NCBI GenBank assembly: GCA_903884375.1
Contig: CAISER010000025.1
Coordinates: forward strand, 1,637 to 65,636
DNA from: Candidatus Collierbacteria bacterium
GTDB lineage: Bacteria > Patescibacteriota > Microgenomatia > UBA1400 > MFAQ01
Direction of reading: 5' to 3'
Length of the DNA: 64,000 nt
The position numbers and the translations under genes are program-made. Numbering within the stretch: position 1 is the first letter of the stretch; each line of letters begins with the position of its first letter. Positions 22,947-60,315 of the stretch are shown piece after piece. The notes under the pieces are model-generated. The model had not been told where the DNA came from. It searched no databases and was given only the letters and a program-made list of their open reading frames with translations.

Positions 22947-25007
22947 TTAATGACGGAATCGGTGGCGGGAGAAGTGTTTCGAATTTTGAGATTTTTTTTC
23001 TTGCCGTTTTTGGTGTTTCCCAAAATTACGAAATAGATCCGGAAGATAATCTTTTAACCAATCTTTTTTTACTTCCAAGCAGGTACAAGCAAAAGTTTTT
23101 CCTTGAGGGTTGATAAAGATTTCATTGGCCACTAAGAATGAACCTTTGGATGGATAGCTGTTGAAATAGACAGAGTTGGGATGAATATAAATGTTAGACT
23201 TGGTTCCATCAACTTTTTTATAATAAAATTTATCAGACTTTTGAATTAGATTGCCAATAAGACCAGCCGTAATTGCTTGATGAATGGCATCTTTTCTGAT
23301 AATCGGCTTAGTGTTGGGATCAATATTGATTTGATGGTTGGCTAAGACAGTCAAAATATCCAAACGAACGTTTTTGGCTTCTTCAAGAACTTTTTCGTTG
23401 AAATAATTTTGTTTTGCCCAATCGTCACTGTAACCACTGGCGGCATATGCTTTCCAAATATTGAGCAGAACAATAAAATCTGAGTCGTTATTATTGATAT
23501 ATTGATCATGAGCTTTGTCAGCGAGGATTGCCTGGGCAGCTTCTTGAGGTCTGATAAATAAATTTTTCCCATCTAGAAGAGAAGCAATTATGACTATTTC
23601 ATTGACACAATTTATTTTTGGATCTAACGATTCAATAATCATGCGACCCAAACAAGGTTCTACCGCCAACTCAACTAACCAATCGCCTATTTCGGTAATT
23701 TGGCCTGATTCGTCCAAAGCACCAAGAGAAGTAAGAAGATTTAGAGCTTGAATGAGATTCTCGCTGCCTGGGTGATCCATAAAATCAAAGTTTCCAACAT
23801 TTTCGATGCCGACTTTTTTCATTGCGAGAACAACTTGGGACAAGTTGGAGCGTTGAATTTCAGGCGTTTGATACTGAGGGCGGTGTTTTAAACTTTCTTC
23901 AGTAAATAATCGATAACAATAGCCTGGTGCAGTGCGACCTGCTCTTCCTTTGCGTTGCTCTAAACCACTTATGGCGTGTTCAATAAGTTCTAACTTTTCA
24001 ATCCCGGATTTTGGATCAAACTTTGTTTGTTTAATTAGTCCGGAGTCGATAACGTGAATAACCCCATCGATAGTTACAGAGGTTTCGGCAATATTGGTAG
24101 CAATAATTATTTTTCTTTTGGGTGTAATAGTAAAAATATTGTCTTGCTCTTCTGGGGGTAGCTCTGCATGAAGAGGAAGAATTTCGACATCTGAAGAGCC
24201 CAACATTGCTTCAATTTTTTCAACTGTATCAGCAATTTCCTTTTTACCTGGCATAAAAATGAGAATATCTCCTTCGAGTTTTTGGTCGATGATCATTTTG
24301 ACTTTTTCGGCAGCGCCTTTGGTAAAGTCATAGTTGTAGGGAATTTCATTTTCGTAAAATATTTTTACGGGATACATTTTCCCAGGAATTTCAACCGAGT
24401 TATTGTTATCCTTCATGCCAATGTATTCAGCAAATCTATTCCGCTCAATAGTAGCCGAGGTAACAATGACACGAATAGGATCAACTCCAGCACCCAAACG
24501 ACGTTCGTTGACATCTTTAAGAAGTCCAAGGCAGAGATCAATGTTCAAACTGCGCTCATGAGCTTCGTCAACCATGACAATGGCGTAGTCAGTGAGCAAT
24601 GGGTCAAATTGAATTTTCCTTAATAAAATACCATCCGTCATAAAAGTAATGTCGGTGTTGTCCGTTGTCATGTCTTCAAAACGAATATGGAAACCTACCT
24701 GATCACCAACTTCACATTGCATCATTTCGGAAACACGACTAGTAACACTTCTTGTGGCGATTCTTCTGGGTTGAGTAACTGCGATTCCCCCCTTAAGTTT
24801 GAGCTCGTTTCGAAGTTCAAGGAGAAGAGGCGGTAAACAAGTGGTTTTGCCTGAACCGGTTTCTCCGATAAGAACAAAGTTTTGATGCTGTCTTATTTCT
24901 TGACGCAATAAATTTCTGAGATTGGCGACAGGAAGCCTATCCAAATTTTCAAGAGCATATTCCGACGAACAAATTTGTCGATTAATAGTATTTATTTCAG
25001 GTTTCAT
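22947..25007 (-). CDS. DEAH/RHA-family ATP-dependent RNA helicase (compact HrpA/HrpB/DHX-like)
   Basis: Motif I GETGSGKTT, motif II DEAHER, motif III TSAT, motif V TNIAETSVTI and motif VI QRKGRAGR. These are followed by an HA2-like region (LGALDESGQITEIGDWLVELAVEP) and an OB-like C-terminus with a basic tail. Confidence 0.85.
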   Translation of the reverse strand: MKPEINTINRQICSSEYALENLDRLPVANLRNLLRQEIRQHQNFVLIGETGSGKTTCLPPLLLELRNELKLKGGIAVTQPRRIATRSVTSRVSEMMQCEVGDQVGFHIRFEDMTTDNTDITFMTDGILLRKIQFDPLLTDYAIVMVDEAHERSLNIDLCLGLLKDVNERRLGAGVDPIRVIVTSATIERNRFAEYIGMKDNNNSVEIPGKMYPVKIFYENEIPYNYDFTKGAAEKVKMIIDQKLEGDILIFMPGKKEIADTVEKIEAMLGSSDVEILPLHAELPPEEQDNIFTITPKRKIIIATNIAETSVTIDGVIHVIDSGLIKQTKFDPKSGIEKLELIEHAISGLEQRKGRAGRTAPGYCYRLFTEESLKHRPQYQTPEIQRSNLSQVVLAMKKVGIENVGNFDFMDHPGSENLIQALNLLTSLGALDESGQITEIGDWLVELAVEPCLGRMIIESLDPKINCVNEIVIIASLLDGKNLFIRPQEAAQAILADKAHDQYINNNDSDFIVLLNIWKAYAASGYSDDWAKQNYFNEKVLEEAKNVRLDILTVLANHQINIDPNTKPIIRKDAIHQAITAGLIGNLIQKSDKFYYKKVDGTKSNIYIHPNSVYFNSYPSKGSFLVANEIFINPQGKTFACTCLEVKKDWLKDYLPDLFRNFGKHQKRQEKKSQNSKHFSRHRFRH

Positions 25008-43795: not shown

Positions 43796-45454
43796 TTAAA
43801 CCTCAAGAAGAATGGCTATAACCAGAGGACGTCTTTGGGTATGATCGAAAGCAAATTTCTCAAGTTGGCCTTCAATCTTTTTTCTAATAAATCCCCAATC
43901 TGTAGCTTGACCTTTGAGATCTTTAAGACATGCATAGACATGTTTCCGAGCATCGTTTATCAACTCTTGCGATTCTTTTTGATAAACGAAACCTCTGGAA
44001 ATAATTTCAATATCTCCGGTTACCTGAGAGTTATCTCGACGCATGGGAACAATGGCCAGTAATATGCCGTCGGCGGACATGACTTGTCGGTCTCTTAAAA
44101 CAACCGTTCCAACATCACCAATACCTAAGCCATCTACGTAAACGTTTCTGGTTTCGATTTTGGGACCTTGTTTGACGATTCCTCCTTCCAATACAATGGA
44201 CTGGCCGTCGGAGAGAACAAAAACTTTTTCAGGGTCAAAGTTCATTTCTTTGGCTAGGTCTTTATAAATCATCATGTGACGAAGATTGCCGCCAATAGGA
44301 ATAATGTTTTTGGGTTTTATCAAACGGGCAAGGAGAGTTAAATCACCTCGATATCCATGACCAGAAACATGAAGATTTTCGGAAGTGCCTGAGTATGTTA
44401 CTTGAATACCTCTTTTGTAGAGAGTGTCGAGTAAATCGAAAATGTCACCTTCATTCCCGGGAATAGCATCGGAACTAATGAGTACTTTGTCACCTTTTTT
44501 TAACTTTATCTGAGTATGTTCGTCATTGGCAAGACGATGCATAGCGGAACCAACCTGGCCTTGAGAACCGGAGACAATAACCGTTACTTGGTGTGCGGGA
44601 AGTGTGGAAACTTGCTGACTTTTAATAAATATTCCTTTGGGGATTTTGATAAAACCATTTTTGGCGGCGGCTTCGACATTTTGTTCGACACTACGCCCAA
44701 TGATGGCTACACGACGATGATATTTGGCACTGGCATCGATGGCCATCTGAATACGAGAAATCGAAGAAGACATGGTAGTAAATATCATTTTGCCTTCGGT
44801 GGAGCGAACTTCACTGTCTATGGCTGTGAGTAAAGAACGTTCCGATGGACAGAAGCCGTTTTTTTCAACACGAAGACAGTCGGTAAGCATCAAGTCAACA
44901 CCGTTATTCCCGGCAACGGCCATGGCACCCATATCCGGAGGAAGATTATCTATTGGTGTTAAATCAAACTTAAAATCGGCACCATGATATACGGTTCCGG
45001 CGGGAGTTTTGATGAGAACATGAAAACAGTTGGGGACGGAGTGAGTGATATGAATGAATTCCAAGTGGAAAGGTCCAAGATTTAGAACTCCTTCAACAGG
45101 TGTCATTTTGTTAGTTATGCCAAACTCGCGAACTTTGATTTCGGCAATAGCGATAGCCAATTTGCTTCCATAAACTTCGATGCCTTTAAGACGAGGAAGA
45201 ATGTAAGGCAAACCACCAACATGATCTTGATGGGCGTGGGTTAGAACAATTCCATGAAGCTTTTTATTGGAGTGCTCAAGATAACTAATATCGGGAATAA
45301 CGGCATCGACGCCAAGGGCGTCATCTTTGGGGAAACCCATACCACAATCAATCACAATTTGATCGTTGCCATATTCATATACGTACATATTTTTGGTGAC
45401 GTCACCGACGCCTCCCAAAGGAATAATTTTTAAAGGAATTTTTTTAAAATCCAT
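43796..45454 (-). CDS. rnj: ribonuclease J (metallo-beta-lactamase / beta-CASP)
   Basis: HAHQDHVGG motif, N-terminal IIPLGGVGDVTKNMYVYEY, and HVSGHG. Confidence 0.9.
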   Translation of the reverse strand: MDFKKIPLKIIPLGGVGDVTKNMYVYEYGNDQIVIDCGMGFPKDDALGVDAVIPDISYLEHSNKKLHGIVLTHAHQDHVGGLPYILPRLKGIEVYGSKLAIAIAEIKVREFGITNKMTPVEGVLNLGPFHLEFIHITHSVPNCFHVLIKTPAGTVYHGADFKFDLTPIDNLPPDMGAMAVAGNNGVDLMLTDCLRVEKNGFCPSERSLLTAIDSEVRSTEGKMIFTTMSSSISRIQMAIDASAKYHRRVAIIGRSVEQNVEAAAKNGFIKIPKGIFIKSQQVSTLPAHQVTVIVSGSQGQVGSAMHRLANDEHTQIKLKKGDKVLISSDAIPGNEGDIFDLLDTLYKRGIQVTYSGTSENLHVSGHGYRGDLTLLARLIKPKNIIPIGGNLRHMMIYKDLAKEMNFDPEKVFVLSDGQSIVLEGGIVKQGPKIETRNVYVDGLGIGDVGTVVLRDRQVMSADGILLAIVPMRRDNSQVTGDIEIISRGFVYQKESQELINDARKHVYACLKDLKGQATDWGFIRKKIEGQLEKFAFDHTQRRPLVIAILLEV

Positions 45455-45697: not shown

Positions 45698-47062
45698 ATG
45701 GAAAAATTGGTGAAAGAAAGAGTGATTCGAATATTTAATTTATCAGAGGATGTTTGGCCTTTTATTGAAACGATGGGCAACAAAAAGGCAAGAATGTCGG
45801 AGATTGAGGAAAACGCAAACTTGGCCGACCGTGATTTGTTTTCAATGGCTGAGGAGTTTGAGTTTACCTTTATCACTCCCAAAAAACTGGATCCCCATTT
45901 CGTAAACTACTTTATCAAAGTTTGTATGATGCGGGAAATGGAAGTATTGGTTCCCAAAAAAAATAGTGGACTTATTTGTGAGGATATTTTGGCGGATAAG
46001 GAGATTATGAAGAGGCTTGTTAAACTGGGGAAGAGCTGTAAAAGATTGGTGCTTACCGCCTACTCTACTTCGCCATATTTTTTACACTTGGTTGGCGAGT
46101 TACGGAAAAAGGGAATTGAAGTACGAACACCAGAAGCTCCAGATGAGGCTAATGCTTGGACGGTAAATTTTTACGGAAGCAAATCGGGGATAAGACAACT
46201 GACACAGATAAACGGGGCAATTAGAGCGGACTTGAAAATGCCTAATGGAGTTGTTTCCTCGGGAGTGTTGGACTCTGCAAGGATAGCGGCAAATAAATAT
46301 ATAAAGGAAAATGGAGTAGTAATCAAAACAAACAAAGGCCACTCAGGAATGGGAGTACTTATTTTCCGTAAAGGTGATTTGCCGAAAAAATATCGAGAGT
46401 GTCAGAAAAAAATTATTGAAATATTTAACGGAGACAGTTACTGGGAAAAATTTCCGATCGTGGTGGAGTCTTTGGTAAAACCCAATCCTCGGATCGGAGG
46501 AGGTTTTCCAAATGCGGAGTTTTTGATAAAAAAAGATGGCGAGGTAAAACTTTTGTATTACTGTGGAATGCGAGTAGACGACAAGGGCGTTTTTGGCGGA
46601 GTGGAGATAGGAGAAGAAGTATTGCCTCGTCGTGTGACTTCCAGAATTACCGATATCGGTTATCTAATTGGCGAACAGTATGCCGAAGACGGTTATCGTG
46701 GTTTTTTTGATATTGATTTTATTGCCGGAAAAGGTGGAGAGATATTTGTGAATGAGTCGAATGTAAGAGTCACTGGAGGAACACATGTGTATCAAGCAGC
46801 AGTAGAACTGGCTGGGCGAGAGTTTATGAAGAAAGTCTATGTGTTGTCGAATAATAACTACGATATTCCAAACAAAAAAATCTTTACTTTCGACAGACTT
46901 CATAAACTAATGAAACCGATACTTTTTGACAGAAAAACGCGTGAGGGATTGGTGATTGCATCGTCAAATCTATTGGCAATGGGAAAACTGGCTTACATTA
47001 TTTTTGGAAAAAATAAACGTAGAGCTTTGGCCGTCGAGGAAGAGATGACGAGATTATTATAA
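45698..47062 (+). CDS. ATP-grasp ligase with pre-ATP-grasp domain (PGM1-like peptide-ligase family, tentative)
   Basis: YGSKSGIRQL..., the central strand VVIKTNKGHSGMGVLIF, and the Mg/ATP-site region FFDIDFIAGKGGEIFVNESNVRVTGGTH. One of only four plus-strand genes. Confidence 0.55.
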   Translation: MEKLVKERVIRIFNLSEDVWPFIETMGNKKARMSEIEENANLADRDLFSMAEEFEFTFITPKKLDPHFVNYFIKVCMMREMEVLVPKKNSGLICEDILADKEIMKRLVKLGKSCKRLVLTAYSTSPYFLHLVGELRKKGIEVRTPEAPDEANAWTVNFYGSKSGIRQLTQINGAIRADLKMPNGVVSSGVLDSARIAANKYIKENGVVIKTNKGHSGMGVLIFRKGDLPKKYRECQKKIIEIFNGDSYWEKFPIVVESLVKPNPRIGGGFPNAEFLIKKDGEVKLLYYCGMRVDDKGVFGGVEIGEEVLPRRVTSRITDIGYLIGEQYAEDGYRGFFDIDFIAGKGGEIFVNESNVRVTGGTHVYQAAVELAGREFMKKVYVLSNNNYDIPNKKIFTFDRLHKLMKPILFDRKTREGLVIASSNLLAMGKLAYIIFGKNKRRALAVEEEMTRLL

Positions 47063-47193
47063 ATATAGAATGGACCCCTCTCCCGCTCAACCAGGTTTGT
47101 TACAAAACTGGTTTCGCAATCGTCGCAAATTCCTTATGCTATGTTTTTTATAATCTGCACAAGGCATATTATGAAAAACCGGGAATTTACTCC

Positions 47194-48255
47194 TCACCAC
47201 TTTGGTAGAAATGATTTTATATTTTCGGGCGTGAGAGATATTGTCTTGGCTTGACCGGTAACAATTAATAGAGCAACTTTACGGACAATACCTTCGATCG
47301 TGCGATTTAGGGTACGAATACCGGCGTCGTAACCTAGAGGACGAATAATCATCGGCCAGAGAGCAGGGTCAATGGTAATGATTGAGGGATCCATACCGGC
47401 GGCTTCCAAAGCTTTGGGGAATAGATATTCGAGGGCAATATGAGTTTTTTCATCGTCGGAGTAAGAAGGCATTTGAATTGGTTCCAAACGATCCATAACG
47501 GCGGTCGCTAAATTGCCCGTGTTGTTGGCCGTGGCGATAAACATAACTTCGGAAAGGTCAACGGGGTAATCAATAAAGTGATCGAGAAAACGATTGTTTT
47601 GCGTTGGATCAAGAAGCTCGACCAAAACACCCATAATATCAGCTCTGGCTTCTTCGGTAACACGGTCGATTTCATCCAGAAGAATAATGGGGTTTTTAAC
47701 TCCCGTATCACAAAGAGCTCTGACCACATAACCAGGTTCGGCTTCAAGATGTAGACGAGACTGGCCACGTAAGTCTTTAGCTGAACCCAAACCTCCAAAA
47801 GGAATACGGGCAATGGGGCGGCCAAGCGCTTCAGAGAGGGCATAAGCAAAAGTAGTTTTACCGGTACCAACAAGACCAACTAAGCAAACAATCGGAGCTC
47901 TCCCCGCTCCAAGGTTTCTGGTGGTACGGAGTTTTAAGATAGACATATATTCAAGAATTCGTTCCTTGACCTCGTTCATGCCGTAGTGATTTTTATCAAG
48001 TGTGGCCTTGATAGCAGTTAAGTCAATCGGGCGTTCGACTCTTTTTGTCCAAGGAACTTTGGCAACCCAAGAAATATAGTGGCTGATTTTTTCGTATTCT
48101 TCAGAAAAAAATCCTTGGGTGGAAAGACGCTCGAGACGAGCAATCATATCAAGAGTATTTTCTTTTAACTCTGGGGGTGTTTCGATACTTTCAATTTTTT
48201 GACGAAGATCATCAAGAAGAGTATTGGCTTTTGTGGTGATTGGAGCAGGATCCAT
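47194..48255 (-). CDS. stand-alone Lon-type AAA+ ATPase module (no LAN N-domain, no protease domain)
   Basis: Collinear with the Lon ATPase region: VPWTKR, HYGMNEVKERILEYM, Walker A GLVGTGKTT, Walker B IILLDEIDR, FIATAN, MDRLE and YDAGIRTL. The ORF stops (…SFLPKW) where Lon proteins continue into the Ser-Lys peptidase domain. Confidence 0.75.
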   Translation of the reverse strand: MDPAPITTKANTLLDDLRQKIESIETPPELKENTLDMIARLERLSTQGFFSEEYEKISHYISWVAKVPWTKRVERPIDLTAIKATLDKNHYGMNEVKERILEYMSILKLRTTRNLGAGRAPIVCLVGLVGTGKTTFAYALSEALGRPIARIPFGGLGSAKDLRGQSRLHLEAEPGYVVRALCDTGVKNPIILLDEIDRVTEEARADIMGVLVELLDPTQNNRFLDHFIDYPVDLSEVMFIATANNTGNLATAVMDRLEPIQMPSYSDDEKTHIALEYLFPKALEAAGMDPSIITIDPALWPMIIRPLGYDAGIRTLNRTIEGIVRKVALLIVTGQAKTISLTPENIKSFLPKW

Positions 48256-48367: not shown

Positions 48368-49363
48368 TTATCGAATATTGTAGGTTGGTGGCTTAGTGCT
48401 GCCGCTACCGGTGTTAATTCTGCACAAACTATCGTTAGTACAAGTGCTTTTAGGACATGTTGAGCTAATATTGACAGTTTTTGATATTGATTTACAAAGA
48501 TTGTTACTACATGTTTTGTAAATACAAACTTTTGTGTTTGCCACTCCTGATCCCACTGTCGAGCATTTACATGTAATGCTCCCATCTTTACAGGTACACA
48601 CTCTGCTCTTTGATTGTCCTGTTCCACAACCTAATGATGCCGGACAATTACCGGAACATTGATTATATGATTGACCGCTGGCAAAAGTATAACCATCACT
48701 GGTAGTGCAAGTGCCAGGCTTAATGATGGTACCGGCACAAGTATTATCATTTGAGCCTTTGCATGTACTAGTAGGACAGGTCGAACTTTGTTTAAAGGTC
48801 ATGTTATATGACTTACACTGACCCTGATAACACTGGGACCATTTACATTCTTTAGTCCCTGAGGGAACGGGCTCTTTATCGGCTATGCATTGGCCGACTG
48901 CGGAACTGGCGGTATAGTTTAAGGCAATTTTTCCATTACCACAGTGATAACCAGAGCAACACTGCCGGACATCATTCCAAGAAAAAACTCCACAGTGTCC
49001 ACCTTCTTCCACACACCTATTTGAAGTTGGTCGAGGTTTTTCAGTGCAATTCGATGGTTTACAGCTCGCGGTAAACGCTCTGCTCTCGCCTCCACCAGTG
49101 TAAGCGCAAATTTCTCCGGTTTTGCAGCCACCTTCCCAACCACATTTATTTGCGGTTGCCAGGCTGCTGCCACAAGTAACGTTTGCCGCTGCTGGTTCAC
49201 TTTCTGGAGCATTGGGGGCTACGGCTTGTCTGGCAGTTAATTGAGCAGCAATAAAAAGAACGGCACCAAGAATAGCAGCAAAAATTAAGACAGGAAAAAA
49301 CTTTTTCAAAAAAGGATTAGTATGCTGTTTGACAATCGTCTTCTTGGGCATCTTCTTGGCCAT
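48368..49363 (-). CDS. membrane-anchored/exported cysteine-rich protein (32 Cys) with internal repeats
   Basis: Basic N-terminus plus TM/signal anchor FFPVLIFAAILGAVLFIAAQL, then 32 Cys in about 270 aa. Two paralogous modules carry the pattern C..CKS.....T....SSTCP.STC. Confidence 0.6.
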   Translation of the reverse strand: MAKKMPKKTIVKQHTNPFLKKFFPVLIFAAILGAVLFIAAQLTARQAVAPNAPESEPAAANVTCGSSLATANKCGWEGGCKTGEICAYTGGGESRAFTASCKPSNCTEKPRPTSNRCVEEGGHCGVFSWNDVRQCCSGYHCGNGKIALNYTASSAVGQCIADKEPVPSGTKECKWSQCYQGQCKSYNMTFKQSSTCPTSTCKGSNDNTCAGTIIKPGTCTTSDGYTFASGQSYNQCSGNCPASLGCGTGQSKSRVCTCKDGSITCKCSTVGSGVANTKVCIYKTCSNNLCKSISKTVNISSTCPKSTCTNDSLCRINTGSGSTKPPTYNIR

Positions 49364-49409: not shown

Positions 49410-49437
49410 ATAATAACTGTTTTTTTGTAAAGGTCAA
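49410..49437 (-). promoter_or_regulatory. candidate sigma-70-type promoter of the Cys-rich gene
   Basis: The minus strand reads TTGACC (49437-49432), a 16-nt spacer, then TATTAT (49415-49410). It lies just downstream of the pnp terminator. Confidence 0.35.
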
Positions 49438-49444
49438 ATTAACA

Positions 49445-49469
49445 AAACGCCCCGAGAATCGGAGCGTTT
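49445..49469 (-). terminator. intrinsic terminator after pnp
   Basis: On the minus strand: AACGCTCCGA-TTC-TCGGGGCGTT (10-bp stem with one mismatch) followed by TTGTTAATTT. Confidence 0.65.
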
Positions 49470-49499: not shown

Positions 49500-51677
49500 T
49501 TAACGAGAGTCTCTAAAATTGCGGAAGTTTGGACGACCACCACCTCTTTGACCGCCTCGATCACCACCGCCAAATCTTGGCCTGTCTCCTCCGCCACCCA
49601 TAGGTCGCTGTGCTCTTATTGGTTCCTCGCCTTCTTTGAGCATGGTGAGATTTACGCGACCCATGGAGTCTACTTCGTAACATCTGACTTCAACTTTGTC
49701 GCCGATTTTCATTGTTTTGAAAACTTCTGGTTGGACTTGGGAAATATGAACTAAACCATCTTTCCCCGGAAGAATATTGACGAATGCGCCAAAAGCTTCA
49801 ACTCTAGCAACAGTACCTTGATAGGTCATGCCAACTTCGGCTTCGGCAACAATGGAATCAATGAAAGCTCTGGCTGCATCTACCTTGGATTGATCTGTAC
49901 CGGTAACGGTAACAGTACCATCATCTTCGATGTTGACTTCAACTAAGAAATCATCTTGGATTTGGTGAATGATCTTGCCACCTGAACCAATAACGTCACC
50001 AATCTTGGCAACCGGGACTTTGGTGGAAACAATTTTAGGAGCGTACTGAGATAGTTTTTCGCGTGGAACAGAAATGGATTCGACCATGAGGTCTAGAATC
50101 TTCATTCTGGCACGTTTGGCTTGTTCAACAGCTTGGGTTAGGACTTCGGCTTTGATACCCGTAACCTTGACGTCCATTTGGAGAGCGGTGATACCGTCTT
50201 TGGTTCCAGCGACTTTGAAATCCATGTCACCTAGGTGATCTTCGAGACCACAGATGTCGGTGAGGGTGACAAAATCTTTGCCTTCGGTAATTAGTCCCAT
50301 GGCAGTACCGGCAACAGGTTTTTTAATTGGAACACCAGCGTCCATGAGAGACAAGGTAGAACCACAAATTGAGGCTTGAGAAGTAGAGCCATTTGAAGAC
50401 ATAACTTCAGAGACAACACGAATGGTATACGGGAAAACGGCGGTGTCTGGAAGGACAGGAACCAAGGCTCTTTCGGCAAGATTCCCATGACCAATCTCAC
50501 GGCGACCTGTACCTGGGCGACCAACTTCACCGGCTGCGTAGCCTGGCATGTTGTAGTGATGCATATAGCGCTTGGTGGTTTCACCCTTCATACCATCGAT
50601 AAGCATTTCTCTGGCTGGAGAAGCTAGAGTAACAACCGAAAGTACATGAGTAAGTCCTCTTTGGAAAAAGGCAGAGCCGTGAGTACGAGGAAGCAAACCA
50701 ATCTCGATATTGATAGGGCGAATATCCTCGATTCCACGTCCGTCTGGTCTGGTTTTGGTTTCGAGAATGGTTTTTCTAGCCTCGTCACGAAGCATATGAT
50801 CAGCGGTTTCGGCAATGTGACTAGCATTGTATTCTGGATGAGCGGCGATAATGCCGTCGACGATTTCTCTAGCTTGGATTCCAGTTTTGGTAGCTTCGTT
50901 TTTCAAGATTACTTGAAGATCTCCAATTTCGGCGCTAACAAACTTTTTAATTTCAGAATCTATAACGATTTCAGGGATAGTACGTTTGGCTTTGCCGTTT
51001 TCTTTGGCAAATTTGTCAATTCCTTCGGCAATGATGTCGACATATTTTTGAGCGTAGGCAAGGGCGCCGGTCATCTTTTCTTCGGAAACTTCATTGGCTC
51101 CGGCCTCAACCATACAAATGCCCCCCTTAGGACCAGAAACGACAAGATCGAGAGGAGAAACAAGCTTTTCTTGCTCATTTGGGTTGATGATGTACTCACC
51201 TTCTGGGGTCATACCAACACGAACAGCACCAACCGGTCCGGCCCATGGATAGTCAGAAAGAGATACAGCAGCTGAAGAAGCAATAATGGCTAAAATTTCT
51301 GGCTCTTCGACTCCATCGATGGAGAGAGGATAAGACATGATCTGAACTTCATTTCTTGAAGCTTGATCAAACAAAGGACGGAGAGAGCGATCGATCACAC
51401 GACCAACAAGGATTTCACCTTCTGAAGGACGTCCTTCACGTTTTATAAAACGACTGGAAGAAATAACTCCACCTGCGTAGAATTTTTCTTGGTAATCAAT
51501 GGAAAGAGGAAAATAATCAATTCCTTCTTTAACTCTGTTTGTGGCTACTACTGAAGCAACAACTATAGTGTCGCCGCATCTTGCAGTAACAGAACCTGAG
51601 GCCTGGGCACCAAAACGGCCGGTTTCGATTGTAATTGTTTTACCATTGAGAACAATGGTAGTTTGAGGATGTGTCAT
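49500..51677 (-). CDS. pnp: polyribonucleotide nucleotidyltransferase (PNPase) with RGG-rich C-terminal tail
   Basis: Two RNase PH domains, KH motif IGDVIGSGGKIIHQIQ and an S1 domain. Start placed at the ATG at 51677 (MTHPQTT...), which is preceded by AAGGA. The track start is a GTG. Confidence 0.93.
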   Translation of the reverse strand: MTHPQTTIVLNGKTITIETGRFGAQASGSVTARCGDTIVVASVVATNRVKEGIDYFPLSIDYQEKFYAGGVISSSRFIKREGRPSEGEILVGRVIDRSLRPLFDQASRNEVQIMSYPLSIDGVEEPEILAIIASSAAVSLSDYPWAGPVGAVRVGMTPEGEYIINPNEQEKLVSPLDLVVSGPKGGICMVEAGANEVSEEKMTGALAYAQKYVDIIAEGIDKFAKENGKAKRTIPEIVIDSEIKKFVSAEIGDLQVILKNEATKTGIQAREIVDGIIAAHPEYNASHIAETADHMLRDEARKTILETKTRPDGRGIEDIRPINIEIGLLPRTHGSAFFQRGLTHVLSVVTLASPAREMLIDGMKGETTKRYMHHYNMPGYAAGEVGRPGTGRREIGHGNLAERALVPVLPDTAVFPYTIRVVSEVMSSNGSTSQASICGSTLSLMDAGVPIKKPVAGTAMGLITEGKDFVTLTDICGLEDHLGDMDFKVAGTKDGITALQMDVKVTGIKAEVLTQAVEQAKRARMKILDLMVESISVPREKLSQYAPKIVSTKVPVAKIGDVIGSGGKIIHQIQDDFLVEVNIEDDGTVTVTGTDQSKVDAARAFIDSIVAEAEVGMTYQGTVARVEAFGAFVNILPGKDGLVHISQVQPEVFKTMKIGDKVEVRCYEVDSMGRVNLTMLKEGEEPIRAQRPMGGGGDRPRFGGGDRGGQRGGGRPNFRNFRDSR

Positions 51678-51731
51678 CCTTAAATCCTTTCTTTTTCGCG
51701 CCACCCTTCTTGAGAAGAAAACAGAAGATAC

Positions 51732-52404: not shown

Positions 52405-53319
52405 TCAACCATTGTCACCAACACGGAAGATTTTAGGTTTGTTCCAGTCTGCCGGGATTGAGGTACCAGCTTCATTGGTAGATAGGTTTTCTTCTTCCGG
52501 AAGAGGAATGTTTTCTTCGGTAGGAGCCGATGGAACATCGGGCACTTCAAAAAATGGCGCTTGGGAAAAACGAGGAGTTTGAACTTTTGTTTTTGGAAGA
52601 TGAGCACCGGAGCGCATAAGGAAAGCAATGGCTTCAAAGGTGTCTGCCGTTAGATTGCCTGTGGATAAATTATTGGAACTTTCGTAAATATTGGTTAATA
52701 GATTTTGAGAAACAGAAGTGTTTAGTTTTAATTTTAATTCCTTGAGAAGACCAATAACCAACTCAGAAAAAGAACCCATGTTTTTGTGATAAAGATTGCC
52801 GGTAAATGCGGCTGGTCGAAGAGTATTGTTGAGATTTAGAATGGTGGCATTATCCAAAAAGTTTTTTTCATCGGCATAAATTTTTCCTAATTCTTCGAGA
52901 GAATTAATACCAAGAGTAATGACTAAGTCGGCTTGAGCTCCTGAGTAAGAGTATTTAACACCGCCGATATCGGGAACGGGAGCACCAGTTTTGGGTTTTA
53001 CCAATAGATAAAATTTGCCGTCATCTCTGACATCGTAGTCAACTTTATCCAAATCTTCTTCACGATAATCAAAGGAGATAATTAAGTTACGACTACCAAT
53101 GGAGTCGGGGATGTTTTTTATACCATTAGTTTCGTCATCAACTTCGACTTCACTTCCACAACCGATTTGAGAAATTTTCCCTGATTGTTTTAGAGCAAGA
53201 TGAAGACTGATTCCGGCGGTAACAAGATCTTTTCCTGGATCGGGAGGAAGAATAATAATAATAGACTTGGCAGATTTAATTAAATTATTAACGTTTATTT
53301 CCGATTTGTTGTCTTCCAT
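52405..53319 (-). CDS. DHH-fold (NrnA-like) protein with all catalytic motifs substituted and no DHHA1 domain
   Basis: Collinear with the NrnA DHH domain, but motif I is PPDPGKD (for PDPD), motif II is ITLGINS (for VCDTAN), motif III is LNLNNT (for IDHH) and motif IV is YESSNNL (for VGDTGRF). The C-terminus is a Pro/Glu-rich tail. Confidence 0.55.
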   Translation of the reverse strand: MEDNKSEINVNNLIKSAKSIIIILPPDPGKDLVTAGISLHLALKQSGKISQIGCGSEVEVDDETNGIKNIPDSIGSRNLIISFDYREEDLDKVDYDVRDDGKFYLLVKPKTGAPVPDIGGVKYSYSGAQADLVITLGINSLEELGKIYADEKNFLDNATILNLNNTLRPAAFTGNLYHKNMGSFSELVIGLLKELKLKLNTSVSQNLLTNIYESSNNLSTGNLTADTFEAIAFLMRSGAHLPKTKVQTPRFSQAPFFEVPDVPSAPTEENIPLPEEENLSTNEAGTSIPADWNKPKIFRVGDNG

Positions 53320-59084: not shown

Positions 59085-59534
59085 TTATTTTTCTCCTGAG
59101 CCGACATTTACTTTAGCAGGACGGAGAACCTTATCGAAAAGATAATAGCCTTTGGTAAGGGTAGAAATGACATGGTCTTTTTTGCCCGGAACGACTTCGA
59201 GACAATCCATAGTGAGTGGATCAAAGAGTTTCCCATCCGATTCAATTAATTGAAGTCCTTCTGTTTTTAGAGTTTCATGAAGTTGTTTGATAACCATTTC
59301 CAAACCGGCATCATGGAGATGATTTTGCGCCATTTCCAATGAATCGAGATTGAGAAGAATTTTTTCAAGAAGCACCGCATTGGCGAATTTGACTATTTGA
59401 GTCTGAGTTTCTTTAAAGCGACGGTCTTGATTTTGATAATCAGCCAATACTCGTTTGTAGTTTTGTTCGTGTTCATCAGCACGAGCGATGATTTTTTCTA
59501 TTTCTTTGCTGGAGGGATGTGTTTTTTTTACCAT
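59085..59534 (-). CDS. grpE: nucleotide exchange factor GrpE
   Basis: YKRVLADYQNQDRRFKE coiled coil and the C-terminal GYYLFDKVLRPAKV. Sits between hrcA and dnaK. Confidence 0.85.
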   Translation of the reverse strand: MVKKTHPSSKEIEKIIARADEHEQNYKRVLADYQNQDRRFKETQTQIVKFANAVLLEKILLNLDSLEMAQNHLHDAGLEMVIKQLHETLKTEGLQLIESDGKLFDPLTMDCLEVVPGKKDHVISTLTKGYYLFDKVLRPAKVNVGSGEK

Positions 59535-60253
59535 TCTTGTGCAATTTGATTTACTAAATTAGCGATATAGCGAACGAAGGGAATATTGCGGTCATATTCC
59601 TGACGACTGGAGCCGATGATACCGAGACTGCCACGATGACCACCAATGTTTAGATCGGCAAAGACACAACTGGCAGGGCGAAGGAGGGTGATACCCATTT
59701 CGTCACCAACTAAAATATGAATTGGAGAGTTGTTTCCTGCCCGATTAAATATATCCAAAAGACGTTGGTGTTGATCTAATAGATAGAATACTTCTTTTGC
59801 GGTAGTAAAATCTTGAAACTCAATCTCATTAAAAATATTGGCATAACCGGCATGATACATTTGACCTTCTTCGGTGGTGGCGATACAAAGTGACTTGGTT
59901 CTTTCGGAGAGAACTTTGGTAGCTTCACGGAGAAGATCATCTCTGTTATAGCGATGATCCCAAACTCTTGATTTCACATTAACCTCTTCAGCAACAGAAA
60001 GATCTTTTTCTTTCATTAATTCATTAACATAAAACTTGATGGCCATGGGGGTGGGGATGCGACCGGCAGAGGTGTGTGGTTGGGTGAGAAAACCTTTTTC
60101 TTCCAGAACAGCCATTTCATTTCGAAGAGTTGCCGGAGATACACCAAGACGGTATTTGTTTTCCAGAGTGACCGAACCGACCGCTTCGGCAGTCTGGGTA
60201 AACTCTTCAACAATCGTTTTAATTATTTGTATCTGTCTTTCGGTTAGATCCAT
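59528..60253 (-). CDS. hrcA: heat-inducible transcription repressor HrcA (short form)
   Basis: LTERQIQIIKTIVEEF...VSPATLRNEMAVLEEKGFLTQPHTSAGRIPT winged-helix N-terminus. Start placed at the ATG at 60253 (the track start is a GTG). Confidence 0.85.
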   Translation of the reverse strand: MDLTERQIQIIKTIVEEFTQTAEAVGSVTLENKYRLGVSPATLRNEMAVLEEKGFLTQPHTSAGRIPTPMAIKFYVNELMKEKDLSVAEEVNVKSRVWDHRYNRDDLLREATKVLSERTKSLCIATTEEGQMYHAGYANIFNEIEFQDFTTAKEVFYLLDQHQRLLDIFNRAGNNSPIHILVGDEMGITLLRPASCVFADLNIGGHRGSLGIIGSSRQEYDRNIPFVRYIANLVNQIAQEW

Positions 60254-60264
60254 AATTTTTTTGT

Positions 60265-60315
60265 TTATCACTCTAGTTAGGAAAGTGATTAGCAGTACTA
60301 TATCATGAGTGATAA
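60265..60315 (-). promoter_or_regulatory. two overlapping CIRCE-like inverted repeats (HrcA operator candidates)
   Basis: The minus strand reads TTATCACTC-N9-TACTGCTAA (60315-60289) and TAATCACTT-N9-GAGTGATAA (60291-60265), against the consensus TTAGCACTC-N9-GAGTGCTAA. The outermost arms TTATCACTC and GAGTGATAA are perfectly complementary. Confidence 0.5.

Follow-up and report, generated by a model that had tools for sequence, protein, structure and literature searches.

Lon-derived AAA+ ATPases without a protease domain in Collierbacteria and other Patescibacteria

We analyzed a 64,000-nt stretch of DNA from a Candidatus Collierbacteria bacterium (contig CAISER010000025.1, positions 1,637 to 65,636; hereafter the window) and, within it, the gene for a stand-alone Lon-type AAA+ ATPase of 353 aa, which we refer to as LonAAA. 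Our results firmly support that LonAAA is a real, selected, Lon-derived AAA+ ATPase with neither intrinsic proteolysis nor the Lon N-domain, and that the 353-aa protein is typical of a protease-less Lon clade found throughout the Candidate Phyla Radiation (CPR; Patescibacteria). On balance, we favor the interpretation that it is a ring-forming remodeler, unable to degrade proteins, that belongs to a monophyletic CPR family.

A Lon ATPase module that ends at the protease boundary

The gene, its domains, and the sequence that follows it are listed below.

47194-48255, minus strand: complete gene for the stand-alone Lon-type AAA+ ATPase, ATG start, 353 aa (ORF list, Pfam, TIGR00763, and Lon structures)
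48058-48240, minus strand: N-terminal three-helix bundle, aa 6-66 (AlphaFold helices 6-22, 28-44, and 50-66)
47476-47889, minus strand: AAA+ alpha/beta core, aa 123-260 (Pfam PF00004)
47245-47403, minus strand: Lon-type lid (alpha-helical small subdomain), residues 285-337, including sensor-2 R314 (Pfam PF22667)
47063-47193, no strand: non-coding tail of 131 nt, from the stop codon to the convergent gene, with no protease remnant (three-frame translation)

Pfam recognized AAA (PF00004, 6.6e-16) and Lon_lid (PF22667, 6.9e-8) in the open reading frame (ORF) and nothing else; neither the Lon peptidase domain (Lon_C, PF05362) nor the substrate-binding N-domain (LON_substr_bdg, PF02190) was matched there. 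The NCBIfam model TIGR00763 ("lon") aligned over model positions 250-571 of 795 with 307.2 bits, short of its cut-off of 608.05, and PRK10787 scored 229 bits against a cut-off of 891. Among PDB sequences, Lon chains were the best matches (E ~1e-68). The alignment begins at query residue ~14, i.e., residue ~246 of Meiothermus taiwanensis LonA (MtaLonA), and query residues 14-352 pair with a segment that stops at the start of the protease domain. An AlphaFold monomer model (mean pLDDT 75) has three helices at the N-terminus, an AAA+ core of the alpha/beta type, and a lid of helices, with low confidence at residues 155-173, the region of pore loop 1. Foldseek searches with this model placed LONP1 and LonA chains on top, with 6N2I among the matches. 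The three-helix bundle is the counterpart of the helical bundle that LonA has ahead of its AAA+ core, while the LON substrate-binding N-domain is absent. Of the features that mark a LonA, the AAA+/lid module alone was found, and the peptidase domain, N-domain, curated score, and LonA pore loops were not.

The protein ends in NIKSFLPKW, followed directly by a stop codon. Two frames of the 131-nt tail contain stops, the third is only a 43-codon read-through, and the convergent 454-aa gene lies beyond it. Six-frame searches of the 64-kb window by tblastn with 20 Lon_C domains and 20 Lon N-regions found nothing (best E 0.03), nor did a hidden Markov model (HMM) built from the 20 Lon_C domains (best E 1.1). 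We therefore rejected an in-frame or frameshifted protease remnant, since the tail is too short and contains stops and both six-frame searches of the window were negative. A preliminary description of the gene had held that it matches the Lon ATPase segment only, ends where the LonA peptidase domain would start, lacks the N-domain, and is followed by 131 non-coding nt and a convergent gene. All of this was borne out, as was the presence of every ATPase motif that it quoted, the coordinates of which we checked by translation. The domain scan that it had proposed detected neither missing domain, and no protease domain appeared in the ORF or in any other frame.

Truncation by misassembly, a concern of the same description, is excluded by two independent assemblies, ERZ18643896 (a contig in six samples) and ERZ27313369, in which the identical protein, its stop codon, the convergent neighbor, and the RNase J gene beyond are all found. 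Relative to homologs at 93% and 89% aa identity, dN/dS of the gene was 0.045 and 0.047, compared with 0.075-0.095 for pnp, 0.03-0.04 for rnj, and ~0.05 for ftsK; because dS was high (1.2-1.5), these values are approximate. The identity of LonAAA to distant relatives is among the highest in the region, being second only to that of DnaK in L001-L004 and narrowly below that of S15 in L009. Against L001, for example, identities were 79% for DnaK, 71% for LonAAA, 69% for S15, 64% for RNase J, and 58% for PNPase. The gene is thus under strong purifying selection, as tight as that on PNPase, RNase J, and FtsK, and dN/dS together with motif invariance excludes a pseudogene. That the gene is a decaying fragment or an assembly artifact of a normal lon, as its low TIGR00763 score (307 vs. 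608 bits) and its coverage of only the middle third of LonA might suggest, is refuted and retains virtually no probability, given an unchanged length and C-terminus in >150 relatives, a dN/dS of ~0.045 with invariant catalytic residues, identical independent assemblies, and no protease remnant in any frame.

With LonAAA as the query, a homology search gave 120 clusters that are 66-93% identical to it, almost all of them of ~351-375 aa (median 354; range 310-455 aa, including a few partial or longer calls) and with AAA and Lon_lid only. In a 25-sequence alignment, their C-terminal FLPK, mostly followed by W, was conserved; it falls at the point where the lid of LonA gives way to the protease. 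Exhaustive searching of representatives at 50% identity yielded further short forms (36-52% identity, 348-669 aa) that also end at the lid, and their extra length is low-complexity Q/P/S/N-rich sequence with no domain. We considered whether such C-terminal tails might be degenerate Lon_C and rejected this, the tails of P0171 and P0159 being S/N-rich, low-complexity, and without similarity to Lon_C. A second homology search, seeded with P0168, added 120 clusters of 342-507 aa, again with AAA and Lon_lid only, named Dojkabacteria, Nomurabacteria, and Patescibacteria. The closest relatives of LonAAA, which lies in a window of ~40% GC, are named Collierbacteria or Microgenomates. Clade members bear the names Collierbacteria and "Microgenomates group" and, among the matches listed in a scan of genome contigs, Levybacteria and Shapirobacteria. 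In the NCBI taxonomy, Collierbacteria, Levybacteria, and Shapirobacteria fall in the Microgenomates group and Nomurabacteria in the Parcubacteria group, and Dojkabacteria (WS6) form a candidate phylum of their own.

In a neighbor-joining tree of AAA modules, the analysis that the preliminary description had recommended, 21 protease-less sequences were monophyletic with respect to 75 canonical LonA sequences in 59 of 60 bootstraps. The nearest canonical Lons were from outside the CPR (Eubacteriales, Deinococcus) and none was a specific sister to the clade, although this placement is weakly informative. Neither the CPR-wide family nor the conserved position of the gene after pnp had been known to the preliminary description.

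The representative search also turned up long proteins in which two or three Lon AAA+ modules in tandem precede a single Lon_C (P0121, P0123, P0125, and P0129). The cluster of P0129 has three members, on contigs of ≤494 kb. P0127 is a Brassica napus gene model, and some of the tandem proteins may be gene-model fusions while others could be double-ring Lon proteases. Because they are mostly singletons and gene-model fusions are likely, we did not use them as a "Rosetta stone" for stacking on canonical Lon.

Nucleotide site, pore loops, and related ATPases

The motifs of the ATPase, as located by translation, alignment, and a motif census, are as follows.

47854-47877, minus strand: Walker A, GLVGTGKT, corresponding to GPPGVGKT in LonA (translation)
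47665-47688, minus strand: Walker B, IILLDEID (translation, motif census)
47521-47535, minus strand: sensor-1, ATANN (translation, motif census)
47482-47496, minus strand: trans-acting arginine finger, MDRLE, R256 (translation, alignments, census)
47308-47328, minus strand: sensor-2, DAGIRTL, R314 (translation, motif census)
47731-47769, minus strand: pore loop 1, RGQSRLHLEAEPG (alignment to MtaLonA and BsuLon; census)
47638-47664, minus strand: pore loop 2, RVTEEARAD, with Ala203 in place of the bulky residue (alignment, census)

The classical residue set of an HCLR-type AAA+ protein (PF00004) is present in full. Walker A is identical in 119 of 120 close relatives, and its K and T are kept clade-wide. 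The census of 152 clade members showed conservation of the Walker A Lys/Thr, Walker B Asp-Glu, sensor-1 Asn, arginine finger DR[LM]E, and sensor-2 Arg. The Arg of the finger is invariant in both family alignments and in every tabulated motif variant of the census, and since this residue acts across the subunit interface, its invariance argues for action as an oligomeric ring. Ring formation and ATP hydrolysis by LonAAA are both likely, with the conserved finger as indirect support.

Pore loops 1 and 2, by comparison, are rebuilt relative to LonA, which the preliminary description had overlooked. Nearly all canonical LonA representatives read RGHRRTY[IV]GAMPG at pore loop 1, whereas LonAAA reads RGQSRLHLEAEPG, with the Tyr replaced by His169 and two Glu added. 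His169-Leu170 sit at the Tyr-Ile/Val of LonA; in the alignment to MtaLonA, Tyr397 corresponds to His169 and Trp431 to Ala203. The Tyr position is His in all 120 close relatives and F, H, S, N, K, I, R, Y, E, Q, or D in distant members, usually with Pro next to it, and the acidic motif [DE][AS]EPG is common to the whole clade. At pore loop 2, the bulky residue of LonA, which is Trp431 in MtaLonA and otherwise Met or Phe, has mostly given way to Ala in close and distant members alike. In MtaLonA, Tyr397 and Trp431 touch the translocating substrate and degradation needs both (PMC8503904). A processive translocase of polypeptides should have kept its aromatic paddle; the clade has not, and it puts two acidic residues per subunit into the pore, so that the sequence does not support the notion of an unfoldase made of an intact Lon ring. 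Thus, the earlier statement that all ATPase motifs are intact holds for the nucleotide site but not for pore loops 1 and 2, which are not Lon-like in either the alignment or the census.

A canonical, Lon-type threading unfoldase seems doubtful, because the LonA pore loops have been replaced and the Tyr position is variable in the wider clade; "remodeler" is the safer word. The preliminary description had proposed "an unfoldase or remodeller, not a protease" made of an intact Lon ring. Its denial of proteolysis stands, as LonAAA has neither peptidase nor N-domain, while "unfoldase" is weakened by His169 and Ala203, and the intact ring was a conjecture. An ATP-driven ring that is re-specified, possibly for basic clients, would fit better.

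LonA itself (endopeptidase La, MEROPS S16, TIGR00763; M. taiwanensis, B. subtilis, E. coli, and human LONP1) is homologous to LonAAA over the bundle, core, and lid at 35-40% identity, and the two have Walker A and B, sensor-1, the arginine finger, sensor-2, and the pre-sensor-1 hairpin region in common. They differ in that LonA has a LON N-domain and a Ser-Lys peptidase and LonAAA has neither, in the pore loops (Tyr to His, Trp/Met to Ala, acidic EAEPG), in Walker A (GL.G.GKT vs. GPPGVGKT), and in the separate clade that LonAAA forms. Nearly the same set of domains is found in 6N2I, an engineered AAA+ fragment of E. coli Lon (344-residue chain; query 16-350 on chain 13-339). That chain, however, is a laboratory truncation of a protease, whereas LonAAA occurs naturally, is conserved, and has altered pore loops. 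LonC, a Lon-like protease with a dead ATPase and no ATP-powered unfolding (PMC3391209, PMC13069640), is likewise a Lon relative that has lost one of two activities. It is the mirror image of LonAAA, which has retained the ATPase site but no protease. Plant FtsHi offers a similar case of an AAA+ protease relative that lost proteolysis and was retained for another role, but FtsHi keeps a degenerate peptidase domain (PMC8197885), which in LonAAA is wholly absent. ClpX, HslU, and ClpB are free-standing ring ATPases without a peptidase of their own and could be functional analogs, although their homology to LonAAA is limited to the AAA+ fold. Moreover, ClpX and HslU have aromatic pore loops, docking elements, and partner peptidases, none of which was seen for LonAAA.

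Gene neighborhood in the window and in relatives

LonAAA lies at the 3' end of a nusA-infB-rpsO-pnp cluster and upstream of rnj, and most loci from three CPR lineages have it immediately or shortly after pnp and ahead of rnj. Synteny with pnp was found at L001-L005, L007, L009, L011, L012, L015-L017, L088, L089, L091, and L092. In relatives at 65-73% identity, pnp, LonAAA, and rnj directly abut, with gaps of 13-45 nt. Among 12 loci at 47-57% identity, pnp is directly upstream in 7 and 5.6 kb upstream in an eighth, and rnj-ftsK follows in 6 of these 8 loci and in 2 loci with no pnp detected. The order rpsO-pnp-LonAAA-(UDG)-rnj-ftsK, where UDG is uracil-DNA glycosylase, is common to Microgenomates, Dojkabacteria, and Nomurabacteria, and rpsO-pnp-LonAAA-UDG-(...)-rnj recurs in one Dojkabacteria and one Nomurabacteria genome at ~40% protein identity. 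Exceptions occur in more distant Patescibacteria, where LonAAA is divergent from groES-groEL with a gap of ~90-160 nt (L013, 7866-11017; L014, 7760-11035), and in L090, where it is flanked by nusA/infB and dnaJ, with no pnp.

Six of the metagenome-assembled genomes (MAGs) among the matches listed (L007, L008, L009, L012, L013, and L015) are titled "uncultured Gammaproteobacteria bacterium". Several of these carry the pnp-LonAAA-rnj-ftsK block on contigs of up to ~650 kb and are probably mislabeled Patescibacteria. The uracil-DNA glycosylase gene (PF03167) directly follows LonAAA in four lineages (L005, 9083-9742; L088, 8217-8873; L089, 8137-8748; L090, 8029-8556) and overlaps the LonAAA stop codon in L090; none is found at that place in the window.

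On the minus strand of the window, the order is hrcA, grpE, dnaK, dnaJ, nusA, infB, a 304-aa gene, rpsO, pnp, a Cys-rich ORF, and LonAAA. Beyond LonAAA lie an ATP-grasp-like gene on the opposite strand, rnj, ftsK, a helix-turn-helix (HTH) gene, and, further on, alaS. The immediate neighbors are as follows.

49500-51704, minus strand: pnp (polynucleotide phosphorylase), conserved upstream neighbor (Pfam, synteny)
48368-49363, minus strand: Cys-rich 331-aa ORF with a hydrophobic N-terminus, between pnp and LonAAA, a lineage-specific insertion
45698-47062, plus strand: ATP-grasp-like 454-aa gene, convergent, between LonAAA and rnj (weak PGM1_C, Pre-ATP-grasp, and BesA/LdmS-like amino-acid ligase matches)
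43796-45454, minus strand: rnj (RNase J), conserved downstream neighbor (Pfam, synteny)

The Cys-rich ORF had no Pfam or PADLOC match and no tblastn match in L001-L024. The slot between pnp and LonAAA varies even in close Collierbacteria relatives, holding an ORF of 1134 aa in L091 and one of 99 aa in L092. A convergent gene of similar size to the ATP-grasp-like gene occupies the same place in the close relatives L086, L087, L091, and L092: L086 and L087 carry a 454-aa gene there, and the L091 and L092 copies align to it at 91% and 67% aa identity. Its dN/dS was ~0.035 vs. L091, and in L001-L024, all more distant loci, tblastn found no match to it. The pnp stop is directly followed by a terminator-like hairpin (49445-49469, minus strand; 11-bp stem, T-rich tail) and then by a promoter-like site (10/12; 49410-49437). 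Since this hairpin follows pnp, co-transcription of LonAAA with pnp is not assured in the window, and the genes downstream of pnp may form a separate transcription unit. In the promoter and terminator scan, counts were at chance level, and the scan was not used as evidence.

Other features of the window touch its heat-shock, translation, and RNA genes. A CIRCE-like inverted repeat, TTAGCAGTACTATATCATGAGTGATAA, at 60289-60315 (plus strand) has 3 mismatches to the consensus, with 0.01 chance matches expected. It lies immediately upstream of an HrcA-domain ORF (59528-60271, minus strand) that is followed by grpE, dnaK, and dnaJ, and it is probably the HrcA operator of this heat-shock operon. Control of LonAAA by HrcA/CIRCE was rejected, as the pattern scan of the window gave a sole CIRCE match, at hrcA, and none upstream of LonAAA; by eye, no CIRCE was evident in the groES-LonAAA spacers of L013 and L014. 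The 304-aa ORF (52405-53319, minus strand) occupies the infB-rpsO interval, the site of rbfA and truB in E. coli. Pfam gave no match for it, but it is kept at 27-39% identity in nearly all related loci; in the distant locus L090, a DHH-family gene adjoins infB. A 686-aa DEAH/HrpA-like RNA helicase (DEAD, Helicase_C, HA2, and OB_NTP_bind domains) is encoded at 22947-25007 (minus strand), between rpoC and fusA, and the genome therefore encodes another RNA-remodeling ATPase. Finally, a role of LonAAA as an anti-phage defense component was rejected: PADLOC gave weak, generic AAA matches only (best DolB, 8.7e-6, 23 bits), and the neighbors are housekeeping genes.

Possible function and significance

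We propose that the three-helix bundle, AAA+ core, and Lon-type lid would assemble as a ring that hydrolyzes ATP, and that this ring would remodel clients rather than degrade them, with a grip on polypeptides unlike that of LonA. LonAAA could thus be an ATP-driven remodeler or chaperone-like factor with a narrowed, possibly basic, set of clients, for which RNA decay or ribosome metabolism is our leading guess. Speculatively, the clients may be basic proteins or ribonucleoproteins (RNPs) tied to PNPase and RNase J, or LonAAA may act in the chaperone network, as is hinted at by its groESL and dnaK neighborhoods.

Several points weigh against this proposal. The ATPase activity, the ring, and the clients are all deduced from motifs and gene order. 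In LonA, the peptidase ring provides much of the stability of the hexamer, and a protease-less module may assemble differently. Our peptidase search covered the window and neighborhoods of ~10 kb, and a partner peptidase or canonical Lon could sit elsewhere. The synteny with pnp and rnj is part of a larger block, hrcA-grpE-dnaK-dnaJ-nusA-infB-x-rpsO-pnp-...-rnj-ftsK, and may reflect inheritance rather than function, and in the window both the hairpin and a foreign ORF stand between pnp and LonAAA. Moreover, the acidic pore loops would argue against direct threading of RNA.

The main rival to a self-sufficient remodeler is a split protease, in which LonAAA would feed unfolded substrates to a peptidase whose gene lies elsewhere in the genome (e.g., a Lon_C-only protein, ClpP, or HslV), as ClpX does for ClpP and HslU for HslV. 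Lon shares its AAA+ clade with ClpX and HslU, both ATPase halves of two-component proteases. This kinship and the intact nucleotide site and arginine finger of LonAAA are consistent with such a scheme. Within the ~10 kb neighborhoods searched, however, no peptidase gene was found at ~20 loci from three CPR lineages. Specifically, neither a protease domain nor an N-domain turned up around the short-family loci L001-L017 (tblastn) and L088-L092 (listed Pfam annotations), while in the canonical controls L018-L024 Lon_C was detected immediately after the AAA module. In addition, the clade does not conserve the pore-loop-1 aromatic on which threading depends, and the C-termini (FLPKW, FVQAW, FTSEV, IRDFK, or VREYL) contain no clade-wide docking motif. 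No clade member is fused to a peptidase, the sole extensions being low-complexity. We consider a split protease unlikely.

A second alternative, which overlaps the remodeler interpretation and is not strictly exclusive of it, is that LonAAA is an accessory of RNA decay that works physically with PNPase and/or RNase J, stripping basic proteins or remodeling RNPs. In E. coli the order, which we checked, is rpsO-pnp-nlpI-deaD, with a DEAD-box RNA helicase gene downstream of pnp, and LonAAA would hold the place of deaD; this is a positional analogy only. An accessory role would agree with that order, with pnp and LonAAA lying on the same strand at gaps of 13-57 nt in Microgenomates, Dojkabacteria, and Nomurabacteria at ~40% identity with rnj downstream, and with acidic pore loops, which would suit basic RNA-binding proteins. 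But the synteny belongs to the larger conserved block, LonAAA is not beside pnp in L013, L014, or L090, insertions and the terminator-like hairpin separate the two genes in the window, and LonAAA has no RNA-binding domain. Such an accessory role therefore seems improbable to us as a specific claim. A bolder version is that, early in Patescibacteria, a Lon motor was freed of its protease and N-domain and became the ATPase of a PNPase/RNase J RNA-decay or ribosome-quality machine, its acidic, non-aromatic pore loops pulling basic RNA-binding proteins off RNA, as an AAA+ counterpart of the degradosome DEAD-box helicase. We regard this as a long shot; if it were true, many CPR bacteria would have been scored "Lon-positive" without any Lon protease.

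Full-text literature searches directed at a protease-less Lon or at Lon in CPR bacteria, with most subscription papers outside their scope, found no description of a protease-less Lon, and a CPR protein-family survey does not mention Lon. In reviews of Lon, the ATPase and protease are always on one chain (PMC9569914). Contrary to this one-chain picture, a large and deeply conserved bacterial family keeps the Lon motor alone, with rebuilt substrate-gripping loops. In databases, members of the clade go under the generic name "AAA family ATPase" or, in JGI, UniRef, and some NCBI MAG records, under the misleading names "ATP-dependent Lon protease" and "Lon protease". Because of the latter labels, metabolic and proteostasis reconstructions of CPR bacteria may wrongly credit genomes with Lon proteolysis. 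LonAAA offers structural studies a minimal Lon AAA+ module of natural origin and raises the testable question of what a Lon motor does without its protease, for which the conserved pnp-LonAAA-rnj arrangement provides a concrete hypothesis.

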